Of a stretch of DNA of 64,000 bases, positions 14,289 to 50,355 are shown piece after piece. The stretch is from an uncultured Campylobacterales bacterium (GTDB lineage: Bacteria; Campylobacterota; Campylobacteria; Campylobacterales; Sulfurimonadaceae), in contig CBFDAB010000001.1 in the NCBI GenBank assembly GCA_965602745.1, positions 4,211 through 68,210 of the forward strand, given 5' to 3'. Under the pieces are notes generated by a model. That model had not been told where the DNA came from, searched no databases, and saw only the letters and a program-made list of their open reading frames with translations. A program made the position numbers and the translations under genes. How positions within the stretch are numbered: position 1 is the stretch's first letter; each line of letters opens with the position of its first letter.

Positions 14289-14306
14289 TGTAACAAGAAG
14301 GTTACA
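14289..14306 (-). promoter_or_regulatory. putative Pho box upstream of phoU
   Basis: Read on the minus strand: TGTAACC-ttct-TGTTACA, then 9 nt, then TACAAT (plus coordinates 14274-14279). It is part of a perfect palindrome TGATTGTAAC-N6-GTTACAATCA (14285-14310). Confidence 0.5.
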
Positions 14307-29586: not shown

Positions 29587-29607
29587 AATCCAGTTATGAG
29601 GTCTGTT

Positions 29608-31911: not shown

Positions 31912-31944
31912 AAGAAAAGGCCATCATTCAGTTATAATAAAAAT

Positions 31945-32592
31945 ATGAAAATACTGTTTTTAGAAGATGATCCTGTTATTTCTGATATTGTGCTTGATTT
32001 TTTGAGCGAGTCTTATGATGTCAAACACTGTTTTAACTCTCAAGAAGCTCTTCAGTCGGCTGAAGAGGAAAGTTATGATCTGTATATCTTTGATATTAAT
32101 GTACCGGGTACATCAGGTATAGAACTGCTAAGAAGCCTTAGATCTTTTAATGACCTTACTCCTGCCATTTTTATGACGGCTTACCAGGAAGTCTCTTATT
32201 TAAGTAAAGGTTTTGATGCGGGAGCTAATGATTTTATACGCAAGCCCTTTGAACTTGAAGAACTTCAAGCCCGTATTGAAAACATCAAACGCCTCTTTAG
32301 CATAGATGAAGAGGTCTTTATAAATAAGAATATCCGTTTTAACGCCATGACGCATAAGGTCTTGGCTGAAGAGGAGACGCACTCTCTTAGTTCAAAGCAG
32401 AGTGCGGTCTTAGATTATCTTATACGAAATAAGAACCGTATTGTCTCAACAGAGGAGATCTTGCAAAACTTGTGGGATTATGATGAGATGCCCGGGCATG
32501 ATACGATACGGACTTATATCAAGAGCCTGCGTAATATCTTGGGAAAAGAGCATATTGTCAATATTCGCGGGGAAGGGTATAGATTTGAATAG
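31945..32592 (+). CDS. OmpR-family response regulator
   Basis: 215 aa with a receiver domain (ILFLEDD...LYIFDINVPG) and a winged-helix domain (...IRGEGYRFE). Confidence 0.85.
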   Translation: MKILFLEDDPVISDIVLDFLSESYDVKHCFNSQEALQSAEEESYDLYIFDINVPGTSGIELLRSLRSFNDLTPAIFMTAYQEVSYLSKGFDAGANDFIRKPFELEELQARIENIKRLFSIDEEVFINKNIRFNAMTHKVLAEEETHSLSSKQSAVLDYLIRNKNRIVSTEEILQNLWDYDEMPGHDTIRTYIKSLRNILGKEHIVNIRGEGYRFE

Positions 32593-33733
32593 CTTAGAAA
32601 AAAAGTCTTTTTACTCTTTTTTAGCCCTTTATATACTCTCTTCGTCTGTCTTTATCACTCTAAGCGCGTACTGGTATTATACAGCCCAAAAAAACGCATT
32701 AGAGAGCAACCAGTATTATAAACTGCAACATATCTCAGACACCCTCTCTCAAAAGATCATTCATGCACATATGCAAGGCTTGAAACTTGATATTCCTGTC
32801 TTAGACAAGGGCATAGGTATCGCCTTGATAGATGTGAATAAAGAGGTGATCTATGGTTCTCTTATAAACGACTTCTCTCCATCTAAGGCAGAATATTTTG
32901 AAAAGGGAGAAGATAATATCTTAATATCAGATGCCCCTCAAGAGCATTTGAATATAAAGTTTGTTGTTGTTCAGTCTAAGGCTCTTTTTGAGCAGAAGCA
33001 AGATCTAAAACGCAGGGTTTTAGCGGTTATGGTCTTAAGTATTATGATGATGATAGGCTTGGCGTGGATACTTTCTCGGTTTTTTATGTCTCCTCTTCAT
33101 CAGAAGATAAAGCAGATAGAAGGTTTTGTGCATGATACGGCGCATGAACTAAACACACCCATAACGGCCTTAAGCATGTCTGTATCAAGAGCCTTAAAAA
33201 AGAGAGATTATGATGAGAAGATCTTAAAAAATATCTCCATCAGCACCAAACAGCTTTTTGATATCTACAGATCTCTGGCCTACCTCTCTTTTGACTCCAA
33301 GAAGCAAGTCTCTAGGGAACTTGATCTGAGTACTGTTTTGAAGAGATCTGTGGCCTATTATAAAGAGCTTAGCGAGAGTAAAAAGATAGAGATAAGTCTT
33401 GAAGCTGAAGGATGTTTCTTTGCCATAGATGAGGCCAAACTCTCTATGCTCTTTGGAAACCTTATTAATAATGCGATTAAATATTCCATGCCAAATTCGA
33501 GTATAGAGATCAGCCTTAAAGAGGGTGTGTTCAAGATTCGAGATCATGGAATAGGGATAGAAAAAGAGAAACTTTCAAAGATATATGAACGTTATAATCG
33601 TGAGACAGACTACGCAGGCGGATTCGGGATAGGTCTGAGTATTGTCCAAAAGATATGCCAAGAATATAAGATCAAGGTAGATGTGACTTCTGAAAAAGAT
33701 CAGGGTACTTGTTTTGTCTTAGCTTTTCACTAA
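32585..33733 (+). CDS. sensor histidine kinase (partner of 31945..32592)
   Basis: H-box HDTAHELNTPITAL, N-box NLINNAIKY, and a G-box region GGFGIGLSIV. The likely TTG start at 32585 overlaps the regulator stop. The longer track ORF start (32441) lies inside the regulator gene. Confidence 0.8.
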   Translation: MNSLEKKSFYSFLALYILSSSVFITLSAYWYYTAQKNALESNQYYKLQHISDTLSQKIIHAHMQGLKLDIPVLDKGIGIALIDVNKEVIYGSLINDFSPSKAEYFEKGEDNILISDAPQEHLNIKFVVVQSKALFEQKQDLKRRVLAVMVLSIMMMIGLAWILSRFFMSPLHQKIKQIEGFVHDTAHELNTPITALSMSVSRALKKRDYDEKILKNISISTKQLFDIYRSLAYLSFDSKKQVSRELDLSTVLKRSVAYYKELSESKKIEISLEAEGCFFAIDEAKLSMLFGNLINNAIKYSMPNSSIEISLKEGVFKIRDHGIGIEKEKLSKIYERYNRETDYAGGFGIGLSIVQKICQEYKIKVDVTSEKDQGTCFVLAFH

Positions 33734-33961
33734 AGGATATAGTCTACACAGACTCTTCAGATCGAATCTTTTTACAATATGATGAAAAGACAAAAGGATT
33801 CGTATGAAAAAGCAAATCGTGATTGACCGCACCCGGTTGCATCGACAGACCTTTGTAGTGAACTGATATTTATATCATAATAACGATATAAATTAATATA
33901 TAAGCTTACTCTGTATAATTTATATGTAAAATCTAATAATATTATGTTGAAGGCTCTTCTT

Positions 33962-34744
33962 ATGTCAAAACTATTAACCATTGAATATTCCAAGCTCAAA
34001 GAAGAGATGGATTCGAGATTTGAATCTAATCAGTCTTTGACGAGTGTGGATGTATTTGATGTTTTTGTATCTGCCCTGCATAAAATAACAAATGTATTGA
34101 AAGAAGAAGACCTAAAGCCTCTCGTCTTTAATCAGTTTAAAGCATACGGCGATTTTGATAAGAAGATGCAAGAAGTCGTGCAAAATGTTGCTGATGTACG
34201 CAAGAGTACGGAAGATGCTATAACAGCGATAGATAAAAATGACACAGGCGGTCTAAAGAGTGCCTACTCTCAGTTAAAAGATTATCAGAAACGTATTCTT
34301 GAGCTTGAAGAAGATATGTACACAGATGATACAACAGGTATGTATAACCGAAAATATCTTTTTAATTATGAGCTTGATAAAGATGAAAACTGTAAATATG
34401 ATGGCATCTTGATGCATATAAGCGTGAATAACTTTCAGCAGATTAATAAAGAATATGGACATGAAGCGGGAGATATTGTTTTAAAGTTGGTTGCTAAAAC
34501 ACTAAAAAAACATCTAAGCCCGATGGGTATACATCTTATCCGTTATATGGGTGTGAAGTTTGTTGCTGTTGCTAAAGAAGGTGTCTCTGTAAGGGTGCAG
34601 AAGGCCTTTAAAGATACAGTTGATCTTATTTTGAGTAAAAAGTTTAAAACCCGTGCCGGTCAAATCCTCAATATTGAACTTCAACTCAGCCATAAGGTAT
34701 TTGAAAAAGGGCAAAGCTTTCAAGAAGTATATGAAAGCTTATAA
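33962..34744 (+). CDS. GGDEF-domain protein with degenerate active site
   Basis: Coiled-coil N-terminus followed by a GGDEF fold (TGMYNRKYL...INKEYGHEAGDIVL). The signature position reads RYMGVKF (nt 34541-34561) instead of RxGG(D/E)EF. Confidence 0.65.
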   Translation: MSKLLTIEYSKLKEEMDSRFESNQSLTSVDVFDVFVSALHKITNVLKEEDLKPLVFNQFKAYGDFDKKMQEVVQNVADVRKSTEDAITAIDKNDTGGLKSAYSQLKDYQKRILELEEDMYTDDTTGMYNRKYLFNYELDKDENCKYDGILMHISVNNFQQINKEYGHEAGDIVLKLVAKTLKKHLSPMGIHLIRYMGVKFVAVAKEGVSVRVQKAFKDTVDLILSKKFKTRAGQILNIELQLSHKVFEKGQSFQEVYESL

Positions 34745-34748
34745 CTCC

Positions 34749-35618
34749 TTATATAAAGTATCTCTCCAGGTCTTTGATTACAGCACCGGGTACGGTCATA
34801 ATCGTTGCAAATCCCATTAGATCTAAAAGAGGATATGAGATAGCGATATAATAGTCGGCGCGCATTGCTGTTGCTTTTGCACTTACTTTTCCGTCCTCAA
34901 GCGTCTCATTCTCGATCAAGACCATCCATGGAAGAAGAGCAGCATTTTTAACACCGATCTTGTCAGCAAACTTCATCGTACGTCTCCCAAGGTTTACACC
35001 ATATAGTACTCTTCCTTGCGAAATCTCAAGTTTAAAGACAAGGTTCTTTTTTGCCTTTGTCTCCAGCTTAGTCTGTAATTCAGCAAGATTTCCCTCTTTG
35101 ATCTTTATTGTATCTTGATAATAGGGACGAGAGATCATAAACTGATAATTTGCAAGTCCGTCAAATTCCCACTTGTCTTCAGATGGAGTCAATACAGGAA
35201 AGGCCTTGTTTATAGCATCTAAAAGAGGTGCTTCATCATTTAGATTGTAGTCAGTTTGCAAAAAAGCACGGATAAAATAACGAGGGTTTGTGATACGTAC
35301 TTCTTTATTTTTTGTATTGATTAAAGCACGCATTGAACCTGCAAGAAAACCACGACCCGGCTTGTCTGCAAGTGCTTTTAAATGTGGGTGGGTAAAGACG
35401 ATAGAATCCAATTTTGCCTTTGCTACCTTTGATACAGATACAATCTCAAAACCTTGAGCCTCAAGGGCAGCCTGAACTTCCTCAGTACTTGTTAATGGCG
35501 CGACCAGATAGGTACTGACCTCTTTAGGCCCAGAATATCCTGCAACAACTTCTTTAGACGAACATCCGCTAAAGATGAGTATGGAGAGGGAGAGAAGAGA
35601 TAATAATAATTTACGCAT
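34749..35618 (-). CDS. hypothetical lipoprotein (289 aa; weak DUF302-like N-terminal region)
   Basis: Lipobox FSGCSS. The family assignment is tentative. Confidence 0.4.
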   Translation of the reverse strand: MRKLLLSLLSLSILIFSGCSSKEVVAGYSGPKEVSTYLVAPLTSTEEVQAALEAQGFEIVSVSKVAKAKLDSIVFTHPHLKALADKPGRGFLAGSMRALINTKNKEVRITNPRYFIRAFLQTDYNLNDEAPLLDAINKAFPVLTPSEDKWEFDGLANYQFMISRPYYQDTIKIKEGNLAELQTKLETKAKKNLVFKLEISQGRVLYGVNLGRRTMKFADKIGVKNAALLPWMVLIENETLEDGKVSAKATAMRADYYIAISYPLLDLMGFATIMTVPGAVIKDLERYFI

Positions 35619-35746
35619 TTGAATCCTTTTGTTGAATTAAGTTATTATGCGATTTTATTCTTAAAGTATTGTTTAACTTAGATAAATATTTATTATATCA
35701 ATATATCTTGATATTGTGTTATACTGCTAAAAAAGTAGGAGAGAGC

Positions 35747-36202
35747 ATGAAACGTTTACATATTCATATTTCAGTAGAAGATATACAAGAGAGTAAAAAG
35801 TTTTATACGGCACTTTTTGGGATGGAACCGACAAAAGAGAAAGAGGATTATGTCCAATGGTTAGTGGATGATCCGGCTGTAAATATGGCTATCTCTTCGG
35901 GACGAGACTCAGTTGGCCTAAATCATTTAGGTCTTCAGATGGATAGTGATGAAGCTCTGGCAGAGGTTGAGGATAGACTTTTAAAGGCTAATATCACAGG
36001 CCAGAAACAAGAAGAAGCGCAGTGCTGTTATGCGGAGTCAAAGAAGTATTGGGTTCAAGACCCTCAAAATGTTATCTGGGAAAACTACCATACTATGGAA
36101 CAGATAGAGTATTTTGGCGGCGATGAGTTTACAGGCGGAACAGGATGCTGTACCCCGACCTTTTCCAAGAACGGACAGTGGTCAGCCGGCGGATCGTGCT
36201 AG
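35747..36202 (+). CDS. ArsI/CadI-family VOC (glyoxalase-fold) metalloenzyme
   Basis: MKRLHIHISVEDIQESKKFY..., a vicinal Cys pair QCCYA, and a Cys-rich tail GGTGCCTP...GGSC. It lies immediately upstream of arsR. ATG 35747 has a GGAGAGAG RBS. Confidence 0.65.
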   Translation: MKRLHIHISVEDIQESKKFYTALFGMEPTKEKEDYVQWLVDDPAVNMAISSGRDSVGLNHLGLQMDSDEALAEVEDRLLKANITGQKQEEAQCCYAESKKYWVQDPQNVIWENYHTMEQIEYFGGDEFTGGTGCCTPTFSKNGQWSAGGSC

Positions 36203-36511
36203 GTGGAGACCTTCTTAAGTACGGTTTCTGCTTTAAATGATGAGACCCGTGTACTTATCTTGCGTTTTTTAGATAAGCACGGTCCATTATGTGTATGTGA
36301 CCTGCAAAGTTCATTGGAGATGATACAGTCACGTCTTTCCCGTCATCTTAAGATACTCAAAGAGGGCGGATTTCTTCGTGTCGAGAGAAGAGGAACATGG
36401 GCTTATTATGAGATACGCTCTCCCTTGGACAGATTTCGCATGGAAGCGATAGAAGAGATACGCCATTTAGATATAAAACTACCCCCATTAAAAGAGAGTT
36501 GCAAGATATGA
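36203..36511 (+). CDS. arsR: ArsR-family metalloregulator
   Basis: 102 aa with a GTG start abutting the previous stop. It has the metal-site/HTH motif PLCVCDLQSSLEMIQSRLSRHLKILKEGG. Confidence 0.85.
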   Translation: METFLSTVSALNDETRVLILRFLDKHGPLCVCDLQSSLEMIQSRLSRHLKILKEGGFLRVERRGTWAYYEIRSPLDRFRMEAIEEIRHLDIKLPPLKESCKI

Positions 36512-36912
36512 AAAAAGTTTTGATCTTATGTACGGGAAATTCTTGCCGTTCTATTATTGCAGAGGCCCTTATCAATGCGAAGTTAGACAGATGTGTAGAG
36601 GCCTACAGTTCTGGTGTCAGAGCAAGCGGAAGGGTCAACCCCTATGCCAAAGAACTCCTTGAAGAGCATGATATGTGGAGAGACGAGTATCACTCAAAGA
36701 CGATCGATAAGGTCATAGATAAAGACTTTGACCTTATCGTGACGGTATGTGATCATGCCAAGGAGACCTGTCCAGTCTTTGTTAAACCGGTGAAGACTAT
36801 TCATATCGGTTTTGAAGACCCGGACGGAAAAGGGCCTGAGGCCTTTGTTGATACACTTATGGAGATTGAGACACGCCTTCTTCCTATAATAGAAAAAGAG
36901 CTCTGCTCTTAG
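36508..36912 (+). CDS. arsC: arsenate reductase (LMW-PTPase / thioredoxin-coupled type)
   Basis: P-loop motif LCTGNSCRS and downstream VCDHAKETCP. Its ATG overlaps the arsR stop (ATGA). Confidence 0.85.
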   Translation: MKKVLILCTGNSCRSIIAEALINAKLDRCVEAYSSGVRASGRVNPYAKELLEEHDMWRDEYHSKTIDKVIDKDFDLIVTVCDHAKETCPVFVKPVKTIHIGFEDPDGKGPEAFVDTLMEIETRLLPIIEKELCS

Positions 36913-36934
36913 AAGAGAGAAAAGGAATTTTTAT

Positions 36935-38188
36935 ATGATTTTAGCATTTAGTCTGTTTTTAGTGACCTTAGTCTTTGTCATTTGGCAGCCAAAAGGTCTT
37001 CAGATTGGAACAAGTGCTGTTATAGGCGCACTTTTAGCCTTGGCTATAGGCATCGTCTCTCTTGATGATGTTTGGACGGTAACAAGTATAGTATGGGACG
37101 CGACACTCTCTTTTATAGGGATCATTATCCTCTCTATGGTACTTGATGAGATAGGATTTTTTGAGTGGGCAGCCTTGAAGATGGCTCGCTTGAGCAAGGG
37201 AAACGGGAACCTGATGTTTGTTTACATCATTATCCTTGGCGCTATAGTCGCGGCATTTTTTGCCAATGACGGTGCAGCCCTTATCTTAACACCCATCTTA
37301 TTGGCAAAGATGAAGCATCTGAATATGAAGCCCATTGCCGTCTTTGCTTTTTTAATGGCGGGAGGGTTTATAGGAGATTCGGCTTCTAATCCCTTAATCA
37401 TCTCAAACCTGACAAATATCGTTACAGCCGGCTATTTTGATATCGGTTTTTGGGAATATGCGAAGACGATGTTTTTACCGAACCTTCTAAGTATCATAGC
37501 CTCAATTGTCGTCTTATGGATCTTCTTTAGAAAAGACATCCCTAAGCATATAGATATTGAAAACCTTGCAAGCCCGGAGTCAGTCATCAAGAACAAGACA
37601 ATGTTTAAGCTCTCCTGGTATTTTTTGGCTCTTTTGATGGTGGGTTATTTTATAGGAGATCATTACAATCTTCCGGTCTCTGTATTTGCCCTGGGAGGAG
37701 GATTGGTCTTTTTAGCCATTGCGACTTACTTCAAGGCGACAAAGCCTCTTATGACGATAAAAGCGGCGCCTTGGCAGGTTGTCTGGTTTAGTATAGGTCT
37801 GTATGTTGTGGTCTATGGTCTGAAAAATGAGGGACTGACGGCTTATATCGCGGTTATCATAGATGCAATGGCTGGAGTAAATGAGAGCTTTGCCATTATA
37901 GGAACAGGCTTTTTAGCCGCAGCCTTAAGTTCGGTTATGAACAATATGCCGACGATTATGATCATGGATATTGCTATCTCAGAAACAGGAAGAGAGGCCT
38001 TGGCCTACGCAAATATCATAGGTTGTAATCTTGGACCAAAGATGACACCGATTGGTTCTTTAGCTACTCTCTTATGGCTGCATGTTCTCGCGAACAAGGG
38101 TGTGAAGATCTCTTGGGGAGAGTATATGAAGGTCGGACTTATCATCACTCCTCCAGTTCTTTTAACGGCACTGCTGGGGTTAATCTAA
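36935..38188 (+). CDS. arsB: arsenical pump membrane protein (ArsB family)
   Basis: 417-aa polytopic permease that follows arsR-arsC. It has ArsB/NhaD-type features (…FFANDGAALILTPI…, …MNNMPT…). Confidence 0.8.
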   Translation: MILAFSLFLVTLVFVIWQPKGLQIGTSAVIGALLALAIGIVSLDDVWTVTSIVWDATLSFIGIIILSMVLDEIGFFEWAALKMARLSKGNGNLMFVYIIILGAIVAAFFANDGAALILTPILLAKMKHLNMKPIAVFAFLMAGGFIGDSASNPLIISNLTNIVTAGYFDIGFWEYAKTMFLPNLLSIIASIVVLWIFFRKDIPKHIDIENLASPESVIKNKTMFKLSWYFLALLMVGYFIGDHYNLPVSVFALGGGLVFLAIATYFKATKPLMTIKAAPWQVVWFSIGLYVVVYGLKNEGLTAYIAVIIDAMAGVNESFAIIGTGFLAAALSSVMNNMPTIMIMDIAISETGREALAYANIIGCNLGPKMTPIGSLATLLWLHVLANKGVKISWGEYMKVGLIITPPVLLTALLGLI

Positions 38189-38890: not shown

Positions 38891-40276
38891 ATGAAAATTA
38901 CTACATTAAGCATATTAACTGCAGTAGCACTCTCTGCAACATCTGCAAGTGCTTTAACACTATATACAGATCCAGCTTCGGGTCAAGTCTTTACACAAGC
39001 TGCTGACGGCCGCATCGAGATGGGAGACTTTGTTGATGCTAAAACAGTTTACATGGAAAACCAGGCTCAAGACTCAGCTGCAATGAAAAAAGAAGTTAAG
39101 CAAAAGGGCAACAAGATCACTATCATGAGAAAGGACTCTCCGGAATTTCTTTTAGGTCAAGAGACTAATATCAATATGAAATTTGTACCTGAAGACAATC
39201 CAGATATGTGGTTCAAAGCGGGTGTACGTATTCAAGGTACAATGGAAAACGTAGATTCTGACAGTAAAGGAAGCCAGTCTGACGCATACCTTCGCCGTAC
39301 ACGTCTTGAAGCTCAAGCTGGATTTGGAAAACATGCTTCTTTTGTAATGGATCTTCGTAATGACAAGGTAAACTTGGATCAAAAAGGTGAGCAGACATTT
39401 AATGTTGGAGATGCTTACGTTAAGATCAAGAAGCCTTTTGACACGTCACTGGTAAACTTCAAGCTTTACCGTGCAAAGATCGATGTTTCACGTACTGAAA
39501 CTGTTAAATCTGCTCGTGTAATTGCTTATGATCGTCCAAAAGTTGCTGATTATGCAGCGCAGTACATCACACATAACCGTCGTGGAACAAATGTTCAGGC
39601 CTATGGTGACTGGGAAAAGAAAGTACATTATCAAGTTGCAGTAGGTGATGCGACTTATGAAGGCAAGCTACAAGATGCGAAGGGTGAAGCGGTAGATGAT
39701 GCTACAGGCGGAGAGATTACTAAGCAGAGTTTCTTTCACGGTGGTAAAATCCGTTTCTCACCATTTGACGGCTGGGAAGAGACAAAAAGAACTGAGACAT
39801 ACATGGGTGAAGGAAAGCACTTTTCTGTCGGTGCAGGTTACTGGGCTGTTAATAGTATTCAAGTTAAGACTACAGCTGCAGGAACAGAAGACCTAAAGAA
39901 TGAGCTAATCAACCTTGAGGCATCTGCTCACTATAAGGGTCTGTTTGTTCAGGCTGAATACTTCAAGATGAAAGATATTGTCGAGGACTTTACTGCGGCT
40001 ACTCTTAATAAGGGTACATCTACGGGTTGGTATGCGACATCTGAGTATGTGTTTAAAGACCTTGCTTATTTAGCACCGTTTGTCCGCTACGAGAAGTGGG
40101 ACAAATTTGATGACCTAGATGGTTACGACTATACAGCGAAGATAGCCGGTGTAAACTGGTACCTTCGTGGAAATACGACAAAAGTCGGTCTTTATGTACA
40201 AAAAGAAGAAAAAGGTGTAAATATTGGTAACGATGACGTTACTACGGTACGCCTAACTTCACAGTGGTTCTTCTAG
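38891..40276 (+). CDS. phosphate-selective porin O/P (OprO/OprP)-family outer-membrane porin
   Basis: 461 aa with a signal peptide. It has the ...AGVNWYLRGNTTKVGLYVQ... motif and a terminal ...RLTSQWFF. Confidence 0.65.
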   Translation: MKITTLSILTAVALSATSASALTLYTDPASGQVFTQAADGRIEMGDFVDAKTVYMENQAQDSAAMKKEVKQKGNKITIMRKDSPEFLLGQETNINMKFVPEDNPDMWFKAGVRIQGTMENVDSDSKGSQSDAYLRRTRLEAQAGFGKHASFVMDLRNDKVNLDQKGEQTFNVGDAYVKIKKPFDTSLVNFKLYRAKIDVSRTETVKSARVIAYDRPKVADYAAQYITHNRRGTNVQAYGDWEKKVHYQVAVGDATYEGKLQDAKGEAVDDATGGEITKQSFFHGGKIRFSPFDGWEETKRTETYMGEGKHFSVGAGYWAVNSIQVKTTAAGTEDLKNELINLEASAHYKGLFVQAEYFKMKDIVEDFTAATLNKGTSTGWYATSEYVFKDLAYLAPFVRYEKWDKFDDLDGYDYTAKIAGVNWYLRGNTTKVGLYVQKEEKGVNIGNDDVTTVRLTSQWFF

Positions 40277-40394: not shown

Positions 40395-40856
40395 ATGCAA
40401 ACAAGTACTTTAATTATAATTTTAATTATTTTACTTTTGATATTGATCCCCCTGCTTCTATCTTATTTGGTCTATCCTGACGAAAAGGTCAATAAGCATC
40501 TGCCGAACCTACCTAAAAAAATAAAAAAAGAAGAACCGGTTATTTCAAAAAATGAGATCTTGAGTTTTGAAGAGATAGCTACTATCTTTTCACATAAGAA
40601 GAGTACAAAAGAGGACTTGCTCAGGGCTATTGAACAGCTTATAAGGCATCATGGAAAGATACAGGCAAAGCTTGGAGATCTTCCTCATCCCGACTTTAAA
40701 CGTTATTTGACCCTGATAATTGAATTATGCAACAATCCGCAAGTTGACAAGGATATTATCGTTTCTTTGGATAATAAGTTACGAACAAAAAATCCAAAAT
40801 ACGGTATGAATATTGATGAGGCTATCAACAAAGGTATAGCAAGAAGAGGGTTCTAG
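40395..40856 (+). CDS. hypothetical N-terminally membrane-anchored protein (153 aa)
   Basis: A single Leu/Ile-rich TM helix followed by a helical soluble domain. Its stop shares the palindrome CTAG with the convergent gene. Confidence 0.4.
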   Translation: MQTSTLIIILIILLLILIPLLLSYLVYPDEKVNKHLPNLPKKIKKEEPVISKNEILSFEEIATIFSHKKSTKEDLLRAIEQLIRHHGKIQAKLGDLPHPDFKRYLTLIIELCNNPQVDKDIIVSLDNKLRTKNPKYGMNIDEAINKGIARRGF

Positions 40857-41933
40857 AAAAAGAGGTCTTCCAGGTCTTCTTTATCGTTATGACTTGCCCC
40901 GCCTGAGAGAATACTCTCTGTTTGGATACAGTCACTGATAATAGAATTATCAAGGAAATGAATTTCTTCAGCAGTTTTGAGTACAAGAACCTCTTGTCTC
41001 CATGTATGTAGAGAATTGGCTATACCAAAAAGAAACTCTTTCATCTCTTTTATCATCTCAAGGTCTTTAACCTGCCCTAAGGCGCTTGCAAAGTTTTTTA
41101 ATGCTTCTGCTAGATTATTAAACTTATGTAAGTTAAAAAGCTGAAGCCCATACTCATGAAAGGCAGTAGATATGTCTTTTAAACTCTTAGGAGTAGGGTC
41201 TAATAGTTTTTGATGAATAATAAGCTCTAAGATCTCTTCTATTGATTCTAAATTATCCATTATGGTATCAAGGTCGCCCGTAAAACTAGCAACAAAGTCT
41301 TCTGCTGATTCAGTCTCAATTTTTGGAGTATAAAAGATAAGTTCTTCTTTTTTAATCTCTTTATTGTTTTCTATAGCATCAATAAGAGCGATACTCATAT
41401 TTTCATTTCGAGTAAGTTGATGAATATTTTTTTCTAGTTCACGGTTTTTGCTTTGAAGTTCTTTTAAGAGACTAGAAATACTTAGATTGTCTTCTTCTAT
41501 TTGAGAATGATATTCACGAAGTTCTTTAAGCTCCGTAAGACGTTTACATGAATGAAAAAGTACATGTATCATCTTTGAAAAGTCAATGGGTTTGATTAGA
41601 AATTTTTCTATTCCTAAGTCGATAAGCTGAATAAGGTATTGAGCGTCATTATGTGCAGAAGTGACGATAATACTCTGCGCAGGATTTATCTTTAAAATAT
41701 TTTCAATCATCTCAATGCCATTCATACGCGGCATATTTATATCAGTGATCACGAGATCAAACTTGGAGCTCTGATATTTTGTTAAACCTTCTTGTCCATC
41801 TTTGGCAGTTTCAAGTGAGGAGAACAAGTTCTTTAAAGACTCTCGCGTAATTATCTCTAATAGCATGATCATCTTCAACATATAGCACATTTAAAGCTCT
41901 GCAAAGTGGCAAGAGGTCTTCAGTACCGTACAT
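40853..41933 (-). pseudogene. CheY-like response regulator with unknown C-terminal domain, apparently frameshifted near the 5' end
   Basis: The frame starting at ATG 41933 encodes MYGTEDLLPLCRALNVLYVEDDHAIRDNYARVFKEL... and stops at 41811-41813. The long ORF (41890 down to 40853) continues in the +1 frame with ...FSSLETAKDGQEGL...FDLVITDINMP...IVTSAH...KP. Confidence 0.6.
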
Positions 41934-41937
41934 AAGA

Positions 41938-42444
41938 TTAGTTCACCCGTAAAGATGTATTTAGCATTTTTCTGGAACTATAATAGTTGATAAAGATCTT
42001 ACCCTTAATAAGTACAATACCTGTTGTCTCATACATGGTTGTTTCTGTTTTAACACCATCTATCTCAATGGTCTGAAGAAGTGTTGTCCTGATTAGGGCT
42101 GATTTGCCGTCTTTTTCTATATTAAAGCTTCTCTCTTTAACTTCAATAAGATTGCTTTGTACCTTTTTCCATGAAGCGCGTAGATCACGTTTATACTCGT
42201 TAAAAGTAAGGCGTTTGGTATTAGAAGTCTCAATATCTTGAGTAGTTATACTAACAGGAGTACGTCCAAGAAAATGTTTTTGCATTGCTTTGATATTCTT
42301 ATGTTCTTTAGCAATCTTAACAGCATCAAGCATCTTGGAAATATTAGTTTCATCCAGTTTTTTTACAGCAAATAGGTTTGTGCTTAAAAAAAGTGTGAAT
42401 AAGGTCAGTATTAATAGTCGCATGGTTATCTCCCTTTGTGTCAT
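41938..42444 (-). CDS. hypothetical exported protein (168 aa)
   Basis: Signal peptide MRLLILTLFTLFLSTNLFA. No family recognised. It lies 22 nt after the META gene and 4 nt before the regulator start. Confidence 0.4.
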   Translation of the reverse strand: MTQREITMRLLILTLFTLFLSTNLFAVKKLDETNISKMLDAVKIAKEHKNIKAMQKHFLGRTPVSITTQDIETSNTKRLTFNEYKRDLRASWKKVQSNLIEVKERSFNIEKDGKSALIRTTLLQTIEIDGVKTETTMYETTGIVLIKGKIFINYYSSRKMLNTSLRVN

Positions 42445-42466
42445 TTATTATAACTCAAAAATCAGC

Positions 42467-42877
42467 TTAATAATCTTCTTTTGCCTCAAAACGGGCTATT
42501 TCTACATTTTCATGAAATAAAATAAGCTGATCTCCTTGTATCTCAATATGATCTGTTTTATCTAAGACTTGTAAAAATTCACTGCTCTGTACCATGGCCT
42601 CTTCGCAAAACATTTTGGTGCTAATAATATGTTTAAAGCTAAATAAGTCTCCTGCTTGGACATAATCTGCACTTATATTGTTACAGCCGTCACTTCCGTG
42701 TAGGCTTGAATCATTTAGATGAAAGAGAAGATGAATTGAGGGTTGATTGTCTATAGTAAGGGGGTCTTTTCCATTAAGTTCGCTAAGGCTCCAATAGGTG
42801 TTCTTGAGTGCCATGTTGGGTGTTGGGGAACAGGCACCAAGAAAGAGAAGAGAAAAAATCAAAAGGTATATAGGCAT
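42467..42877 (-). CDS. META-domain (HslJ-like) lipoprotein
   Basis: Lipobox LGAC. ...LKNTYWSLSELNGK... and ...GSDGCNN... are typical of META domains. Confidence 0.65.
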   Translation of the reverse strand: MPIYLLIFSLLFLGACSPTPNMALKNTYWSLSELNGKDPLTIDNQPSIHLLFHLNDSSLHGSDGCNNISADYVQAGDLFSFKHIISTKMFCEEAMVQSSEFLQVLDKTDHIEIQGDQLILFHENVEIARFEAKEDY

Positions 42878-42879
42878 AT

Positions 42880-45027
42880 TTATCCTTCAGCATTTGGGCG
42901 AAAGATAAGGAAGGGCACATTTCCGTTTGAATGCTTTAGCCATACATTATCTTCTTTGGCTTCCATCTCGTTTTCACCAAGTTGAAGCTCTATTTTTCGT
43001 AATTTTCGTAACTTAGTTATAAGGACTTCGATCTCCGGATCATAAGAGAGTAGGATAATATAAGTATTTAGTCCCTTGATTATATCAGCATTACTTAGTT
43101 TTGGACTTGCAGCATATTTTTTTATTTGAACGATATATGCCATCTTAAGCATGGCTCCAACGAGGTTTGCTCGACTTTGTAAGGTGAAAAATTCACCCAG
43201 AGTCTCTTTGATCTTCTTCACATTACCTAAAAATGCAAGTTCCTCACATTTTTCTATCATCTCTTTCCATTTAGACTCTAAGTCCTGAGCCTCATTGAGT
43301 TCGATTAAAAAAGGATGTTCATCCAAGAGAGTATATGCCTTCTCATACTCATTATTATCATAAGCAAGAATGAACTTTTGTGCCGCTATGGCATATTTTT
43401 CCAAGACCTCTGCCTTGTCATGCAGATGAGGAACATTTAAAATAAGTTTTGCATATGTCTGCACCGTTTCAAAGTCTCTCTCTTTGAGTTTTTCTTTTGC
43501 GGCTTCAAAGACTTTCTCAGCCAAGTCCATAGCCTTTTGAAACTCTGTAGTCTCTTTAAGATAGCTATGCTTAGAGATAATGGTGAGAAGCTTTTTAAAA
43601 TCTTTTTCTTTTAGTCCGGAAATAAGGTCTCTAAAAACATCAGGATCATTGATAAGTGTTTGAATAAGAGGCATTTTTGAAGGTACATTATTAAAATTTC
43701 CCAGAATAAGCTTGGCCGTACCAGCATCATTCTTGCTCAACATGACTGTCTTGGCTTTTTCAAAAGATTTTTTCCATAAGCTCTCCACCTGTATGTATGA
43801 GGGAGTCAATTTTAAAGTAGGAGACTGCTCAGCCAGAGAGTAGGCAGCAGGGAGCTTTTTAGTGCTGATAAGCTGAGTAAAACGTTCATAAGAACCAAAA
43901 TCACGTAATAATACTTGTATAGTGCTGGTGATCTTTGGTACGCCTTGAAAACTATTTAAAAGTGCCTTTGCTTTGTCAGTCTCTTTGTTGATGAGTAGGC
44001 TAAATCCTATCTTATAAGTCTTTTCCCAGGTCTCATCAAACTCTTTTTTGGCTTCAGTGAATTCTAATAAGGGATTGTTCTTAACTACCTCATAGGCTTC
44101 TTTATAGGCTTTATTGCTAATCGCCTCTCTTAGATCTTCTTCGTTTTCAAGATTATAATAAGCGAGTTTCCCGTTTAGGCATCCGATGATAAGATGGTTT
44201 TTCTTCTCATTGAAGTCTATATAAGAGGGCACTCCTAGAGAGGAGATATAATGCGTATCTATAGCTTCATATGTGAGCAGAGAATAGATTGCAATAGCGT
44301 GTTGCGATCCGCTGACATAGAGTACTCTCCCGTCACAAGCCAGACCACGGACTTCACCGTGGGGTGTCATAAAGCGGGCAAGAACCTCTCCGCTAAGGTA
44401 GTTTAGAACAACTATCTCGCCTTCAGTGCTCCCGGTGGCGACGATATACTCTGTCACAAAGCAGATGGCAGATACACGTGACTTATGCTGTTTGTATTTT
44501 TTTGCCCTTGCCTTGGTATGGATGTTGGTGCATATCATAGAACCTTCAAAACCGCATGAGATAAGATAGCTCCCATCAGGAGAAAAGCGTAAGAAGGCGA
44601 CATAATCCGGATGCGAAGGGAAACGGGATATAAATAAGCCTCGTTCAACATTCCATAAATAGACTTTTCCATCTACTCCGCCACTGGCGAGGTACTTTCC
44701 ATTTGGTGAAAAACGTAAAGACTCAATCTCATCTGTATGCTTTAAGAAACTATGCAAAACTTTTTTAGCATGAGTGTCGATGATACGGATAACAGGCTTT
44801 TGTGTCTCAGTATAAGCTAGGTAGTTTCCATCAAGAGTGAAGTCAATGTTATGATTATTCTTGTCTGCTTTTGCCGCAGCAAGTTGCAAAGCAAAACGAC
44901 TCTCATAATTTTCATTTGAAATGATACGAAACTTATGTTCCGCATCTGCAATACCAAGAGCATCTTTTCCCACAGTTTGCATAGCAACAATAGCATGCTT
45001 AAGGTCTAAAGTTTTAAAAGGAGTCAT
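42880..45027 (-). CDS. WD40 beta-propeller plus 4x ~85-aa helical-repeat protein (paralog B)
   Basis: 715 aa with no signal peptide. WD-type blades are present (FSPNGKYLASGGVDGKVYLWNV, FSPDGSYLISCGFEG...). Four internal repeats follow, spanning about residues 305-640. Confidence 0.7.
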   Translation of the reverse strand: MTPFKTLDLKHAIVAMQTVGKDALGIADAEHKFRIISNENYESRFALQLAAAKADKNNHNIDFTLDGNYLAYTETQKPVIRIIDTHAKKVLHSFLKHTDEIESLRFSPNGKYLASGGVDGKVYLWNVERGLFISRFPSHPDYVAFLRFSPDGSYLISCGFEGSMICTNIHTKARAKKYKQHKSRVSAICFVTEYIVATGSTEGEIVVLNYLSGEVLARFMTPHGEVRGLACDGRVLYVSGSQHAIAIYSLLTYEAIDTHYISSLGVPSYIDFNEKKNHLIIGCLNGKLAYYNLENEEDLREAISNKAYKEAYEVVKNNPLLEFTEAKKEFDETWEKTYKIGFSLLINKETDKAKALLNSFQGVPKITSTIQVLLRDFGSYERFTQLISTKKLPAAYSLAEQSPTLKLTPSYIQVESLWKKSFEKAKTVMLSKNDAGTAKLILGNFNNVPSKMPLIQTLINDPDVFRDLISGLKEKDFKKLLTIISKHSYLKETTEFQKAMDLAEKVFEAAKEKLKERDFETVQTYAKLILNVPHLHDKAEVLEKYAIAAQKFILAYDNNEYEKAYTLLDEHPFLIELNEAQDLESKWKEMIEKCEELAFLGNVKKIKETLGEFFTLQSRANLVGAMLKMAYIVQIKKYAASPKLSNADIIKGLNTYIILLSYDPEIEVLITKLRKLRKIELQLGENEMEAKEDNVWLKHSNGNVPFLIFRPNAEG

Positions 45028-45041
45028 AGTCTTTCTCTTTC

Positions 45042-47201
45042 TTATGAAATAATATCAGGAATTTTACCGTCTGTGAGGCTTAGCCAAAGATCACGAGGGT
45101 GTCGTTGCTCTTGTTCAGGGGAAAGTTCTATTGTGATTATATTATCTTTTTTCAGTTTTAAAATAAGATTATGCAATTCTGTGTCATAAGCAAATATTTT
45201 TATGTATCTGTCAATCGCCTCTTGGATAAGAGATAATTGGCGCCGTATTACAAGAAATTTAATCTGTGTTATATAGCTTAATCGTAATAGAGAACCGACT
45301 TTTTGAGAACGTGACTTAAGTCGAAGAAGTCTTCCTAGAATATTTTTTACCTCTTTTGTATTTCCCAATAAAGCCTCTTTTTCGGCTTCTTTCATCTTAG
45401 TACTCCACAGCTGTTTAAGTTCTTGGGATAGGGGTAAAGGATGAAGCTCTTTATGTTCATCAATAAGGCTATAGCAAGAAGGCAAGTCTTCATTTTGATA
45501 ATAAGATTCGAGTTTTTTAGCCAAGTCAAGAAGATTAGAAAGCTTTTTGCATTTTACCTTCATATAAGAGATGGGCTCTAAGGCTTTTTCCTCAAGTTGC
45601 GCAAGGTCATAATCACGAGAAAAGATATGCTGATGAAACTTCTCGTATAAGTTGTCTATCGCATCAATAATTTTTTGATAACTCTGTATCTCTTTTAAAC
45701 AAGGGTAATGCTTTGTTATCTCAAATATTTTATCATAAGAGTGTGAATTGATAAGATGTGTGAACTCTAAAAAACGTTCAGGTTGATGAAGCAAAACCTG
45801 TATAAAACAGAGTTTAGCATGTACTCGGCTAAAAGGTTCTAATACTTTAAGAAGTTGATGTGTCTGCCCCTTGAAAATATAGACCTGAGCCTTTAAAAAT
45901 GTTTTTTCCCAGACCTCTTCCATCTCTTGATAGGGCAAAGTACGTTTTGCAAGGCTGGCTTGTTCAGCAATACTATACGCTAAGGCATAATTATGATGTG
46001 CCACTGCTGTTTTAAATCTTTCAAAATGTGAGATTAGGGCTTGAAGCTCTTTTATTGACCTTTTTTTAGAAGGTACATGAGTAAACTTGTTAATAAGTAC
46101 CAAGGCGAGGTCAGCCTCGTCTTCTTGAACATAATTGATAGCCTGTTCTAAGGTCTCATCCCAGATATTTTCAAGTGTCTGCACTAAATAAGACTCTCTC
46201 AGAAGAGGGAACTTTTGAAGCAAGTCATAGCTTTGAGCATAAGAAGAGGTACTAATACGAAGTTCTAAAAGCTCTTGAGGATAAAGATGAAATAAATTGA
46301 CGCTTCCGTCCTCGCATCCTACAATTAAAACATCCTCAGGTGTAATATCTAGACTTGTTACCTTTGAGTCAAGCTGTATATATTCTGAGTCAAGTATCTT
46401 CTGCTCTTTGAGGTCAATTAAAGAGATATGACGGGCATGTCCAGAGGCCAAGAGATAAGAACCGCTGCTTGTAGGACATAAGGCGTTGATGTTTCCCAGG
46501 CGTATCTGGTAATGCTTGTATATCTGAGAGGTGTTAATATCAATAATATCAAGCCCCCCTTCTATATTACCCGCAGCAAGATGCTCTTCATTGATAAAGC
46601 ACAGAGCGTTAATACGGACATGGTTGGGCGTTATACGCTTGGGAGAGACTTCGGTATGGATATTGGTGATAACGATGCTCCCGCCGTACCCGCTTGTCGC
46701 AACGAGACTGCCTGAGGGACTAAAAGCAGCGCTGGAGACATAGTTTACCTTTGGTTGTGAAAAGAGGTGGGGTGTGTATTCGGGAAAGGAACTCAACCTT
46801 GAGACCTGCCCTGTTGAAAAAAGATTCCATAAATAGACGCGTCCGGTGAGGGACCCTGCAACGAGATAGCTTGAACTCGGGTCAAAACAGAGAGTTTCCA
46901 TCTTATTTTGCAGGGTAGGGAAGGAGTGGTGAAGTTTTTGTGCCTTCAGGTCGATAACACGGACTACGGACTGATCTTTTTTACTAAAAGCTAAATATTT
47001 TCCATTCGGACTAAAACTAATACTCATCTTTTCATTATGGACATAGGCCTGCTTAAAGCTAAACTGCTGCTCTATCTCCATAGTAGAAATATCTACAATA
47101 AAAAAGTTCTTAGTCTTATCAACGAGGGCTATCTTCCCCTCATCAAGAACACTCAGATAGACGATCTGTTCGTCGAGTTTTAATTTTGCGCTTGCTATCA
47201 T
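45042..47201 (-). CDS. WD40 beta-propeller plus 4x ~85-aa helical-repeat protein (paralog A)
   Basis: 719 aa, collinear with the downstream paralog (FSPNGKYLAFS..., LVAGSLTGRVYLWNL, FSPSGSLVATSGYGG...). No signal peptide and no NTPase motif. Confidence 0.7.
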   Translation of the reverse strand: MIASAKLKLDEQIVYLSVLDEGKIALVDKTKNFFIVDISTMEIEQQFSFKQAYVHNEKMSISFSPNGKYLAFSKKDQSVVRVIDLKAQKLHHSFPTLQNKMETLCFDPSSSYLVAGSLTGRVYLWNLFSTGQVSRLSSFPEYTPHLFSQPKVNYVSSAAFSPSGSLVATSGYGGSIVITNIHTEVSPKRITPNHVRINALCFINEEHLAAGNIEGGLDIIDINTSQIYKHYQIRLGNINALCPTSSGSYLLASGHARHISLIDLKEQKILDSEYIQLDSKVTSLDITPEDVLIVGCEDGSVNLFHLYPQELLELRISTSSYAQSYDLLQKFPLLRESYLVQTLENIWDETLEQAINYVQEDEADLALVLINKFTHVPSKKRSIKELQALISHFERFKTAVAHHNYALAYSIAEQASLAKRTLPYQEMEEVWEKTFLKAQVYIFKGQTHQLLKVLEPFSRVHAKLCFIQVLLHQPERFLEFTHLINSHSYDKIFEITKHYPCLKEIQSYQKIIDAIDNLYEKFHQHIFSRDYDLAQLEEKALEPISYMKVKCKKLSNLLDLAKKLESYYQNEDLPSCYSLIDEHKELHPLPLSQELKQLWSTKMKEAEKEALLGNTKEVKNILGRLLRLKSRSQKVGSLLRLSYITQIKFLVIRRQLSLIQEAIDRYIKIFAYDTELHNLILKLKKDNIITIELSPEQEQRHPRDLWLSLTDGKIPDIIS

Positions 47202-47279: not shown

Positions 47280-47711
47280 ATGTATATTCAAAATAACAGC
47301 TCATATTTATACTCAGTACAAGATGAAAAGCCTTTAAGCTCTTTGAAAAAAGAGAATGATGAAAAGGTCTCAGCAGATCCTTCTTTGAAAAATTTTAGTG
47401 AAAAAGCGACACTGGCCTTTGAAGATCTTGCTATGGGTCTTGACAAAGAAGAGAAGAATGACTTAGTTGAAAACCTCAATAGCATTTCTAAGACAGCCGC
47501 TTTTTTTTCGATGAATGGATTTGAATCCCAAAGTGAACGTATACTGATAAGTCAATATTTTGAGAATTTCGGAGGTGTATTAAGTGAGGATGCTATTAAA
47601 AAGATGATCTATTCCAAGCTAAATAATCCCAGTTGCAAAAACAGAGATTTCTTAGAACGCTTTGCCAAGGCTCTAGGTGAACCTCTTCAAAGCATAAATA
47701 TCAGAGTTTAA
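47280..47711 (+). CDS. hypothetical protein (143 aa)
   Basis: ORF divergent from the WD40 operon. No motif recognised. Confidence 0.35.
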   Translation: MYIQNNSSYLYSVQDEKPLSSLKKENDEKVSADPSLKNFSEKATLAFEDLAMGLDKEEKNDLVENLNSISKTAAFFSMNGFESQSERILISQYFENFGGVLSEDAIKKMIYSKLNNPSCKNRDFLERFAKALGEPLQSINIRV

Positions 47712-48921: not shown

Positions 48922-50355
48922 TTACATCAACCCTCGCATCATCAGGTGTTGGTACATCGGTTTTAGCATATATACGTCAAAGACCCACCATGCAGAACGT
49001 GGAACAGAGATATCTTTCCAAAACGGGATAGATGGTATTGGACCGTCATATCCGAACTCTGCCATAATGATCTCTCCATAGCGCGGTTTCATCGGGCAGA
49101 CCGTATATCCGTCAAATTTCTCTTTTAGCTCCTTGCCTTCCATAGCGGAGATAAGATTGGCTGTCATGATCGGGGCATGATGACGCGTTGATCCACCTGT
49201 CTTGCCCATAGGAATACCACAAATATCTCCGATACCAAAAACGTTTTTATAACGGCGGTGTTGAAGTGTGTACTTATCGACTTCTAACCAGCCCCTTGCT
49301 GTTCCTTTTTGCCAACTGAGCATTGATTCTTTTACTGCGTCAACAGGACCCATTGGCGGTACGATATGGATAAAGTCATACTCAATATCGACCTTTTCAT
49401 ACTTGTCGAGAGTCTCGTACATATCCAGATCTTCGTCATACTCGCCTTTTTCTTGCCAGAAGTGATCAAAGGTGGCTATTTTTTTCTTTACATCTATTGC
49501 TTTAAGGTTGTGTGTGAATTTTGTAGACATACCTTCATAGCTGTCTTGGGTTCTTTGAAGCTCTTCGTCTACATTTTTTAGACTAAAGAGTTTTGCATTG
49601 TTTGTTGTAAAGATAAACTCAGCAGATAATCCATCTTTTTTCAGGTAATCAGCAGACAGGTAGAGGATTTTCTGTGGGGCACCGCCACATTTAACAGGTG
49701 TGTTAGGATGGGTATAAATAGCTCTCGGCTTCTTACCCTCTTTGGCTGCTTTTTTCAGGTCTTTAAACCATTGGTGGGTAAGTTCACCGCCATCGTGCGT
49801 ACCTTTCTCAAGGTCATTGAGATAGACGGAAGAGATACCGTTTGTACCGATATCAGCAACCGTTAGCCCCTCGATCTTCTCATAATGGTACTGGAGACCT
49901 GTGGCAACAACAAGGTAATCGTAGCTTATCTCTCCTCCGCTGCGAAGAGTGATCTTGTTGTTGTCAGGGTCAATACTCTTCGCCTCGTCTTTGATCCACT
50001 TTACATCATCAGGAATAAAGCTCTTATTGCTCATCTCTATCTCTTTAGGCTCGTATACACCTGCTGCGATAAAGACCTGCCCAGGCTGGTAAAGATGGAC
50101 ATCATTAGGTGCAATAACAGTAATATCCGGATTTTTTAAAGAGGAACGAAGACGGGCCATAGACATAATCCCACCGGCACCGCCGCCAAGAATGACAATC
50201 TTACCCTTCGCATCTGATGCATGAATATCAGTTGTGGTCGAACCGGCTATGAGAGAGGCGGCAATAGGGGATATTCCCATAAGCTTAAGAGCTTCTCGTC
50301 GTGAAAGACCGTCGGTTATAGAGTTTAAAGGCTCGGTGGGAATATTTTTATGCAT
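48922..50355 (-). CDS. Tat-exported FAD-dependent sulfide:quinone oxidoreductase-family flavoprotein
   Basis: Twin-arginine motif SRREALKL, Rossmann motif ILGGGAGG, and conserved Cys contexts VKCGGAPQK and YTVCPM. Confidence 0.7.
   Translation of the reverse strand: MHKNIPTEPLNSITDGLSRREALKLMGISPIAASLIAGSTTTDIHASDAKGKIVILGGGAGGIMSMARLRSSLKNPDITVIAPNDVHLYQPGQVFIAAGVYEPKEIEMSNKSFIPDDVKWIKDEAKSIDPDNNKITLRSGGEISYDYLVVATGLQYHYEKIEGLTVADIGTNGISSVYLNDLEKGTHDGGELTHQWFKDLKKAAKEGKKPRAIYTHPNTPVKCGGAPQKILYLSADYLKKDGLSAEFIFTTNNAKLFSLKNVDEELQRTQDSYEGMSTKFTHNLKAIDVKKKIATFDHFWQEKGEYDEDLDMYETLDKYEKVDIEYDFIHIVPPMGPVDAVKESMLSWQKGTARGWLEVDKYTLQHRRYKNVFGIGDICGIPMGKTGGSTRHHAPIMTANLISAMEGKELKEKFDGYTVCPMKPRYGEIIMAEFGYDGPIPSIPFWKDISVPRSAWWVFDVYMLKPMYQHLMMRGLM

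Follow-up and report, generated by a model that had tools for sequence, protein, structure and literature searches.

Three groups of described proteins come closest to the pair of genes considered here. The WD40 domains of PkwA from Thermomonospora (5yzv), WDR5 and G-beta share with them a seven-bladed WD40 beta-propeller; the TPR- and Sel1-type scaffolds (P58IPK, 3ieg; APC/C; BamD; the PflA/PflB-type proteins of C. jejuni, 9hmf) share all-helical tandem repeats and a presumed protein-binding role; and the membrane-coat-like (MC-like) proteins of the PVC superphylum, together with protocoatomer and intraflagellar transport (IFT) A proteins, share the order of a propeller followed by all-helical repeats and the occurrence of paralogous copies (PMC2799638). 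The genes in question, which we call WD-A and WD-B, lie side by side on the minus strand of a 64,000-nucleotide stretch of DNA from an uncultured Campylobacterales bacterium (GenBank assembly GCA_965602745.1, contig CBFDAB010000001.1, positions 4,211 to 68,210), which in its full length is referred to as the window. They are followed there by genes for a META-domain lipoprotein, a small exported protein and a response regulator, and the initial annotation had read the five genes as a cytoplasmic scaffold pair linked to an envelope module and a phospho-relay output. It had also been unable to map this gene set to any characterised system, and we likewise obtained none from Pfam, NCBIfam, PADLOC, sequence and fold searches of the PDB, or the literature. 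On the evidence presented below, we lean, with modest confidence, towards the view that the WD-helical proteins are stand-alone cytoplasmic protein-protein interaction scaffolds, with WD-A as the core member and WD-B as an optional partner.

Domain architecture and predicted structure

WD-A and WD-B are collinear from end to end (29% identity over 718 columns, E 6e-107), and in both proteins the matches to the Pfam WD40 family (PF00400; 62.3 bits for WD-A and 65.9 bits for WD-B, cutoff 27) are confined to about residues 1-310. An AlphaFold2 (AF2) model of WD-A, built from a 58-sequence alignment, has a predicted local distance difference test score (pLDDT) of 91.5 and a predicted template modelling score (pTM) of 0.82. 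In this model 28 strands, corresponding to seven blades, occupy residues 1-305, and the chain is all-helical from residue 309 to residue 685, ending in a short conserved tail, with the propeller N-terminal to the helical domain; in the cap region, helices are placed at residues 657-685 and 705-710. A Foldseek search with the whole model returned WD40 propellers only, the best being the WD40 domain of PkwA (5yzv; E 2.7e-16, template modelling (TM) score 0.86 normalised to the target, root-mean-square deviation 2.9), followed by WDR5 and G-beta. The N-terminal part is accordingly modelled as a closed seven-bladed WD40 propeller that can be superposed on solved WD40 domains.

Since WD40 matches dominated the full-length Foldseek search, the C-terminal part of WD-A was modelled separately, and this second model has a pLDDT of 94. 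Comparison of a profile of the C-terminal 410 residues (57 homologs) with itself, using hhalign, gave off-diagonal matches at offsets of 84-85, 169 and 252 residues, with E values of 2e-26, 7e-18 and 3e-8, respectively. The four helical repeats of about 84 aa are real, far beyond chance. Alignment, Pfam, hhalign and AF2 therefore bear out the earlier description of the two large proteins as cytoplasmic, collinear paralogs that each combine a WD40 propeller with four helical repeats.

Efforts to place the helical domain in a known family gave nothing significant. Its 414 C-terminal residues have no Pfam match at E<=10, TPR and Sel1 included; Foldseek against the PDB yielded no significant neighbour (best IFT-A, E 0.3; clathrin, E 1.7; all TM scores below 0.2), nor did a search of BFVD (best E 0.6); and a PDB sequence profile search with the full-length 58-sequence alignment matched the propeller and not the helical part. 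The C-terminal domain is thus a helical repeat without a Pfam family or a significant PDB neighbour, and fold and profile searches, in keeping with the initial annotation, assign the propeller to WD40 and the helical part to no characterised family. An identity as TPR, Sel1 or HEAT repeats was considered and rejected on the same Pfam, PDB and BFVD results and on the period of 84-85 aa.

Among the Foldseek hits to the helical domain, none of them significant, the first places are taken by IFT-A subunits, the TPR domains of APC/C and P58IPK, and clathrin heavy chain, which lends something to the idea that WD-A and WD-B are membrane-coat-like proteins of the protocoatomer type, in which propeller and alpha-solenoid would shape or organise the cytoplasmic membrane in the manner of PVC MC-like proteins, coat subunits and IFT subunits. 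Two paralogs lying side by side, which is common for coat subunits, and the recurrence of envelope genes as neighbours point the same way. We are not aware, however, that internal membranes have been reported for these bacteria, and no membrane-binding elements are seen in the sequences; moreover, the repeat is an 84-aa multi-helix unit and not a simple helix pair, and even the best Foldseek match falls short of significance. Although the order of the two domains agrees with the definition of the MC architecture given in PMC2799638, propeller-plus-helical combinations occur in most proteomes according to the same source, and the three representative G. obscuriglobus MC-like proteins tabulated there exceed 1000 aa, as against about 710 aa here. 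We therefore rate a coat-like function as distinctly unlikely.

Neither WD-A nor WD-B has an NTPase domain (NB-ARC/NACHT, Walker A) or a Ser/Thr kinase domain in Pfam or NCBIfam, and nothing meaningful was obtained from NCBIfam as a whole; domains of these kinds were met only in long WD40 proteins that are unrelated and whose similarity is limited to the propeller (database entries P0100 and later). In addition, neither protein has a transmembrane (TM-helix) segment, a signal peptide or a detectable amphipathic anchor, the maximum Kyte-Doolittle score over 19 residues being 1.1. Pfam, NCBIfam and the hydrophobicity scan hence agree with the earlier statement that the pair carries no signal peptide and no enzymatic, STAND or kinase domain.

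Size, range and conservation of the family

A word-indexed search with WD-A gave about 100 clusters of proteins of 700-730 aa, which have either no name or the name "WD40 repeat domain-containing protein", and WD-A homologs are 50-97% identical. When 1.84 billion representatives were searched exhaustively with a hidden Markov model of the helical domain alone, 505 proteins reached E<=1e-3 and 340 of these E<=1e-30, and the family therefore comprises at least 505 clusters at 50% identity. In the best 150 of these 505 the helical domain lies at about residues 300-710 of proteins of about 700 aa, the exceptions being shorter, fragment-like entries, and this placement in the best 150 representatives implies that the architecture of the family is fixed. 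Every member with an organism name is assigned to Sulfurimonas, Sulfuricurvum, Sulfurimonadaceae or Campylobacterota, and there is a cultured carrier, Sulfuricurvum kujiense DSM 16994, in which the gene is Sulku_1817. No literature on Sulku_1817 was found, and a search for literature on the family, or on WD40 proteins in Sulfurimonas and Sulfuricurvum, gave a single mention of a "WD40 ... of unknown function".

The family is vertically inherited. A neighbour-joining tree has several deep clades, one of which, clade A, contains the WD-A genes of the window and its close relatives, and WD-B stands on a deep branch of its own. Judged from this tree, WD-B is an ancient paralog and not a recent duplicate; an origin by recent tandem duplication was rejected on account of the deep separate branch and of WD-B orthologs that are 68-80% identical across the lineage. 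Two propeller motifs are near-invariant, namely the loop SRLSSFPEY (WD-A residues 134-142), part of which has low pLDDT, and GYGGS (residues 171-175), and the five C-terminal cap columns listed in Table 1 are invariant or near-invariant among 58 and 26 family members. WD-B has the variants SRFxSHPDY and GFEGS, and is without the 12-residue loop insertion of clade A.

Gene content of related loci

The loci used for comparison came from species-representative genomes (15 loci) and metagenomes (34 loci), plus locus L021, and the 24 clade-A loci with readable downstream sequence entered the tally of gene content together with the window. All five genes are present in only 3 of these 25 loci (the window, L021 and L029). 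WD-B is present without the regulator in 7 loci, the regulator without WD-B in 11, and both are absent from 5; these counts sum to 26 and not 25, one locus having been miscounted or entered twice (L033 is apparently identical to L012), which leaves the pattern unaffected. WD-A, the META lipoprotein and the exported protein, on the other hand, occur together in 23 of the 24 loci, with L013 lacking the META gene. The states of WD-B and the regulator are interleaved on the WD-A tree, in all four combinations. Moreover, C-terminal remnants of WD-B are found between WD-A and the META gene in two lineages (L005:12169-12294; L012:12154-12450, equal to L033:10154-10450), and L008 has a frameshifted WD-B copy (12166-14303). 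Scattered states, remnants and frameshift together imply that WD-B and the regulator have each been lost several times, and to judge from these sequences the losses of one were apparently independent of those of the other. Where WD-B has been kept, it is 68-80% identical to that of the window, compared with 57-74% for the co-resident WD-A, and this higher conservation relative to its neighbour implies that WD-B is functional there.

The genes that flank the cluster, namely orf143, orf153, a Tat-signal flavoprotein, DoxX, ArsB and a porin-like protein, are equally syntenic in these loci, so that adjacency within the lineage is weak evidence of function. The five-gene arrangement is a lineage-specific mosaic string of genes and probably not a dedicated five-part system.

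This result bears directly on the initial proposal that the five genes form one module in which the cytoplasmic WD-A/WD-B scaffold pair couples an envelope module to the regulator as phospho-relay output. A functional unit of this kind would accord with the co-directional genes, with their gaps of 14, 2, 22 (or 43) and 4 nt that contain no terminator-like site, with the same gene order in L021 and L029, with the adjacency of WD-A, META and exported-protein genes in nearly all A-clade loci, and with lipoprotein genes that are coupled to WD homologs in two loci of other clades as well (L019 and L024, see below). Yet the five genes are not conserved together, the four WD-B/regulator combinations are scattered over the WD-A tree, and the regulator is frameshifted in the window itself; homologs of the regulator are found in unrelated two-component clusters, no partner gene accompanies the WD genes of other clades, and contact of WD-A or WD-B with periplasmic proteins is topologically unlikely for proteins without an export signal. 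We consider the five-gene module unlikely.

The variable presence of WD-B and the regulator between conserved flanks could also be read as the mark of an accessory conflict or defence island with WD40/repeat proteins as sensors. Defence systems of the STAND type commonly have WD40 and TPR proteins as sensors, and PADLOC gave one weak match, of the WD-B propeller to HEAT-ARM_XIII (E 4.5e-11). That match, however, is limited to propeller residues 12-205, PADLOC gives nothing for WD-A, the META lipoprotein or the exported protein, and for the regulator only a weak match of its receiver region to SduA (E 3.5e-06). No NTPase or effector domain is present, the GC content of the cluster is unremarkable (0.35-0.38, compared with 0.39 for the whole window), and the family is single-copy and vertically inherited, with a stable chromosomal context in each clade. 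A role in defence is, in our judgement, hardly credible.

WD-helical genes in other clades

None of 20 loci from other clades has a gene for the META lipoprotein, the exported protein, the regulator, orf143 or orf153 within 5-8 kb of its WD-helical gene, and co-occurrence of the five families across Campylobacterota, by which the initial annotation had proposed that its module be judged, is thus not seen in these loci. The neighbours are different ones. In the Sulfuricurvum clade (L016, L018, L041-L056), the WD-helical gene lies within a few genes of a class I S-adenosylmethionine-dependent methyltransferase (Methyltransf_31), an SLT lytic transglycosylase and YebC/TACO1, neighbours that have been kept despite several local rearrangements; in L016, the stop of the WD gene overlaps the methyltransferase start. 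Elsewhere the WD-helical gene is found near polysulfide/thiosulfate-reductase-type genes (L019), acetolactate synthase (L020), a LapB-like TPR/zinc-ribbon protein (L024) or insertion sequence elements (L025).

In L019 and L024, a small lipoprotein gene (L019:5463-6008; L024:5532-6008) runs 8 nt into the start of the WD-helical gene, an arrangement that suggests translational coupling. With 33% identity (E 1e-17), the two lipoproteins are homologs of one another; their lipoboxes are LISGC and LCVGC, and there is a weak match to DUF1131. Homology of these proteins to the META lipoprotein, the exported protein, orf143 or orf153 was looked for and not found.

That small lipoprotein genes are repeatedly coupled to WD-helical genes, in three separate clades, would be explained if WD-A and WD-B formed hetero-oligomers at the membrane. 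In a scheme of this kind, the WD-helical family would be the Campylobacterota counterpart of membrane-coat/IFT-like proteins, WD-A/WD-B hetero-oligomers at the cytoplasmic membrane would organise an envelope-associated process, and the regulator would dock its acidic-aromatic tail (see below) on the propeller. To our knowledge, a coat-like architecture of propeller plus alpha-solenoid has so far been reported in bacteria only for the PVC superphylum. We regard this scheme as speculative and very unlikely to be correct.

A proposed stand-alone scaffold family

The reading that we prefer is that of a scaffold family which does not depend on the other three genes. Each WD-helical protein would be a rigid two-domain unit, in which the seven-bladed propeller is packed against the four helical repeats of about 84 aa and the C-terminal cap; the pTM of 0.82 suggests a defined geometry between the domains and was counted in favour of this reading. 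The propeller, with its SRLSSFPEY loop and GYGGS motif, may be the binding site for a conserved partner, and the helical arm may provide a second binding surface or an oligomerisation surface. WD-A would be the constant component, and WD-B, dispensable in many lineages, would probably pair with WD-A wherever it has been retained. The META lipoprotein and the small exported protein would be constant neighbours within one lineage only, and the response regulator an optional neighbour that in the window has perhaps been inactivated by a frameshift, or else misread by the assembly.

Several points weigh against this reading. The binding partner, the pairing of WD-A with WD-B and the localisation are inferred only. 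The A-clade loci were retrieved by searching with WD-A, so that its constancy among them is partly by construction. Short gaps and ribosome-binding sites fit co-transcription of all five genes, which is compatible with a local functional link, and the WD-A/META/exported-protein triad in 23 of 24 loci could reflect function rather than synteny; in this connection, the distribution of the exported protein is as narrow as clade A. Finally, the overlapping lipoprotein genes of L019 and L024 hint at a recurrent association with lipoproteins that stand-alone scaffolds leave unexplained.

The META lipoprotein and the exported protein

The 136-aa protein matches the META domain PF03724 with 79.9 bits (cutoff 24) over profile positions 3-108 of 109, and has the lipobox LFLGAC, the cysteine of which follows a hydrophobic stretch and is kept in all 11 orthologs examined; a ribosome-binding site, GAAGGA, precedes its start. 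Its identification as a META lipoprotein in the initial annotation is confirmed by the domain and the conserved lipobox. The further designation "HslJ-like" stands as far as these two features go, but the protein scores only 17.5 bits against the HslJ equivalog NF007766, far from the cutoff of 168. From these scores, we would call it a META lipoprotein that is not demonstrably HslJ.

The exported protein, described at first as having 168 aa, has a cleavable signal peptide with the site ...LFA/AK that is conserved in 12 orthologs, so that its export as proposed holds; its length does not. The ATG at 42423 is preceded by AGGGAG, and the orthologs begin with MRLL or MKLL, making it very likely that translation starts there and not at 42444; with this start the protein has 161 aa, and its gap to the META lipoprotein gene becomes 43 nt. 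No known domain and no Pfam match were found in it. Its 95 homolog clusters, all at least 57% identical, are confined to the lineage of the clade-A WD genes.

The response regulator and its frameshift

The regulator gene does not form a single open reading frame (ORF) in the window. The ATG at 41933 opens a frame of 40 codons, encoding MYGTEDLLPLCRALNVLYVEDDHAIRDNYARVFKELVLLT, that ends at the stop 41811-41813, and the remaining 345 codons (40853-41890) are in another frame. DNA alignments place the cause at an extra T at 41826/41827, where the window has GAACTTGTTC and L021, L002, L003, L004, L009 and L011 have GAAC-TGTTC. In L021, a 97%-related contig the DNA of which is 98% identical to the window over this stretch, the regulator is intact (10505-11581, 359 aa). 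A database entry of 345 aa (P0121), the length of the truncated ORF of the window, is 94% identical to the L021 regulator. The frameshift is either that of a real pseudogene or an assembly error.

The receiver domain (REC, PF00072) reaches 78.9 bits in the 345-aa ORF, compared with 91.4 bits in the intact ortholog of L021, and its acidic pocket is split by the frameshift: VEDD belongs to the N-terminal fragment, whereas ITD is encoded by the main ORF. The C-terminal ~230 aa comprise a coiled coil, a helical region and an acidic-aromatic tail (...EDLEDLFF in the window). In the orthologs (L021:10505-11581; P0122-P0239) the tails read ...DLDDLFF, ...DDIFDF or ...DDLEFF, and follow a conserved DIHxLDxSxISD motif. 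Acidic-aromatic tails of this kind are typical short docking peptides. Apart from coiled-coil noise, the C-terminal domain has no Pfam match at E<=10, and searches of the PDB with phmmer and with a 12-sequence profile gave nothing significant and no recognisable output domain. A reading as a histidine phosphotransfer (HPt) domain, raised by an AFHEYG...L pattern, was rejected, there being no Hpt match in Pfam at E<=10 and only noise in the PDB searches. The initial annotation had described a CheY-like regulator with a C-terminal domain that it could not assign; both the REC domain and the absence of a Pfam or PDB family for the ~230 aa have stood up, whereas the gene as one ORF has not. Proteins with REC and the same C-terminal domain (30-35% identity) are also encoded at two places that have no WD genes, one of them a dense cluster of two-component genes and the other an unrelated context.

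Layout of the locus and neighbouring genes

Coordinates of the features are collected in Table 1. With the start codons chosen in the initial annotation, the five minus-strand ORFs are co-directional and separated by 14, 2, 22 and 4 nt, as it had stated. There are no terminator-like sites between them, and co-transcription of all five genes is plausible from their spacing. The 3' ends of the regulator gene and the convergent orf153 overlap by 4 nt (40853-40856), which leaves no space for a terminator between the two.

Table 1. Positions of the WD-helical genes, their domains and adjacent features in the window.
Feature	Position	Strand	Description
WD-A	45042-47201	minus	719 aa, ORF; core member of the WD40 plus helical-repeat family
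WD-A propeller, residues 1-305	46287-47201	minus	predicted seven-bladed WD40 beta-propeller (Pfam, AF2 model, Foldseek)
WD-A helical repeats, residues ~319-654	45240-46247	minus	four tandem all-helical repeats of ~84 aa (hhalign self-match)
WD-A C-terminal cap and tail, residues 655-719	45045-45239	minus	conserved columns F670, D673, E675, R703, W706
WD-B	42880-45027	minus	715 aa, ORF; ancient paralog of WD-A as judged from the tree, same architecture
META-domain lipoprotein	42467-42877	minus	136 aa; PF03724 and lipobox
Exported protein	41938-42423 (longest ORF from 42444 = 168 aa)	minus	161 aa from the probable start; signal peptide
Response-regulator gene, frame disrupted	40853-41933	minus	REC and ~230-aa helical C-terminal domain; main ORF 40853-41890
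Extra T that frameshifts the regulator gene	41826-41827	minus	TT in the window, single T in orthologs
orf143, divergent	47280-47711	plus	143 aa; syntenic with WD-A in all close relatives
orf153, convergent	40395-40856	plus	153 aa; N-terminal transmembrane helix; syntenic in most A-clade loci

The divergent orf143 has no match in Pfam or NCBIfam; by tblastn it adjoins WD-A in essentially all A-clade loci, and it was not found near the WD genes of other clades. The top Kyte-Doolittle score of orf153 over 19 residues is 3.29, at residues 5-23.

Further out, the flavoprotein mentioned among the syntenic flanks (48922-50355, minus strand) is a 477-aa FAD-dependent pyridine-nucleotide-disulfide oxidoreductase with a twin-arginine-type N-terminus (...SRREALKLMGISPIAASLIAG...) and is conserved upstream of the cluster in nearly all relatives; its sequence makes a periplasmic sulfide-dehydrogenase or sulfide:quinone oxidoreductase (SQR)-like enzyme likely. 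On the other side, a 461-aa protein (38891-40276, plus strand) with a signal peptide and the C-terminus ...SQWFF is 79-88% identical in relatives and matches nothing in Pfam or NCBIfam; we take it to be a probable outer-membrane porin. Beyond it, positions 29596-38188 hold a metal and arsenic block with a P-type ATPase that has YHS and HMBD domains (29596-31911), a histidine kinase (32441-33733), a GGDEF protein (33944-34744), a low-molecular-weight phosphatase/ArsC-like protein (36499-36912) and ArsB (36935-38188).

Implications for annotation

We advise that WD-A and WD-B be annotated as WD40/helical-repeat family proteins, the 136-aa product as a META lipoprotein, its neighbour as an exported protein specific to the lineage, and the response regulator as frameshifted; a "five-gene system" should not be passed on in annotations as if it were a unit of function. 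Should the family prove to be a dedicated scaffold, it would point to an unknown cellular process common to the whole lineage in Sulfurimonas and Sulfuricurvum, sulfur-oxidising Campylobacterota that dominate sulfidic redox interfaces. The existence of a cultured, genome-sequenced carrier, Sulfuricurvum kujiense with Sulku_1817, makes experiments feasible.

Comparison with known systems

Among the neighbours of the WD-helical genes, the 136-aa protein shares a full-length META domain and a lipobox with the HslJ/META lipoproteins, and falls far below the HslJ cutoff (17.5 versus 168). The regulator shares a canonical REC domain with RssB and CheY-like regulators, its best NCBIfam resemblances, which fall far short of the respective cutoffs, being to proteins of the RssB type and to others with REC; it differs from them in the C-terminal ~230 aa, which match no Pfam or PDB family, and in the frameshift that the gene carries in the window.

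Compared with PkwA, WDR5 and G-beta, WD-A has no kinase or other N-terminal partner domain and adds a helical repeat domain of 400 aa, and its propeller is set apart by the family-specific SRLSSFPEY and GYGGS motifs and, in clade A, by the 12-residue loop insertion. The TPR/Sel1-type scaffolds, which appear in the weak Foldseek list, have repeats of 34-40 aa where that of WD-A has 84; their TM scores to the helical domain are below 0.2, Pfam finds no TPR or Sel1 repeat in it, and 9hmf is periplasmic whereas WD-A is predicted to be cytoplasmic. With the PVC membrane-coat-like and protocoatomer/IFT-A proteins (PMC2799638), the helical part has no significant similarity in sequence or structure, and the WD-helical proteins are shorter, are built on an 84-aa repeat and belong to another phylum, Campylobacterota. 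What is new in comparison with all of these is an uncharacterised protein family with a helical repeat domain that has no Pfam entry; its theme is that of the propeller-plus-helical-repeat scaffold.

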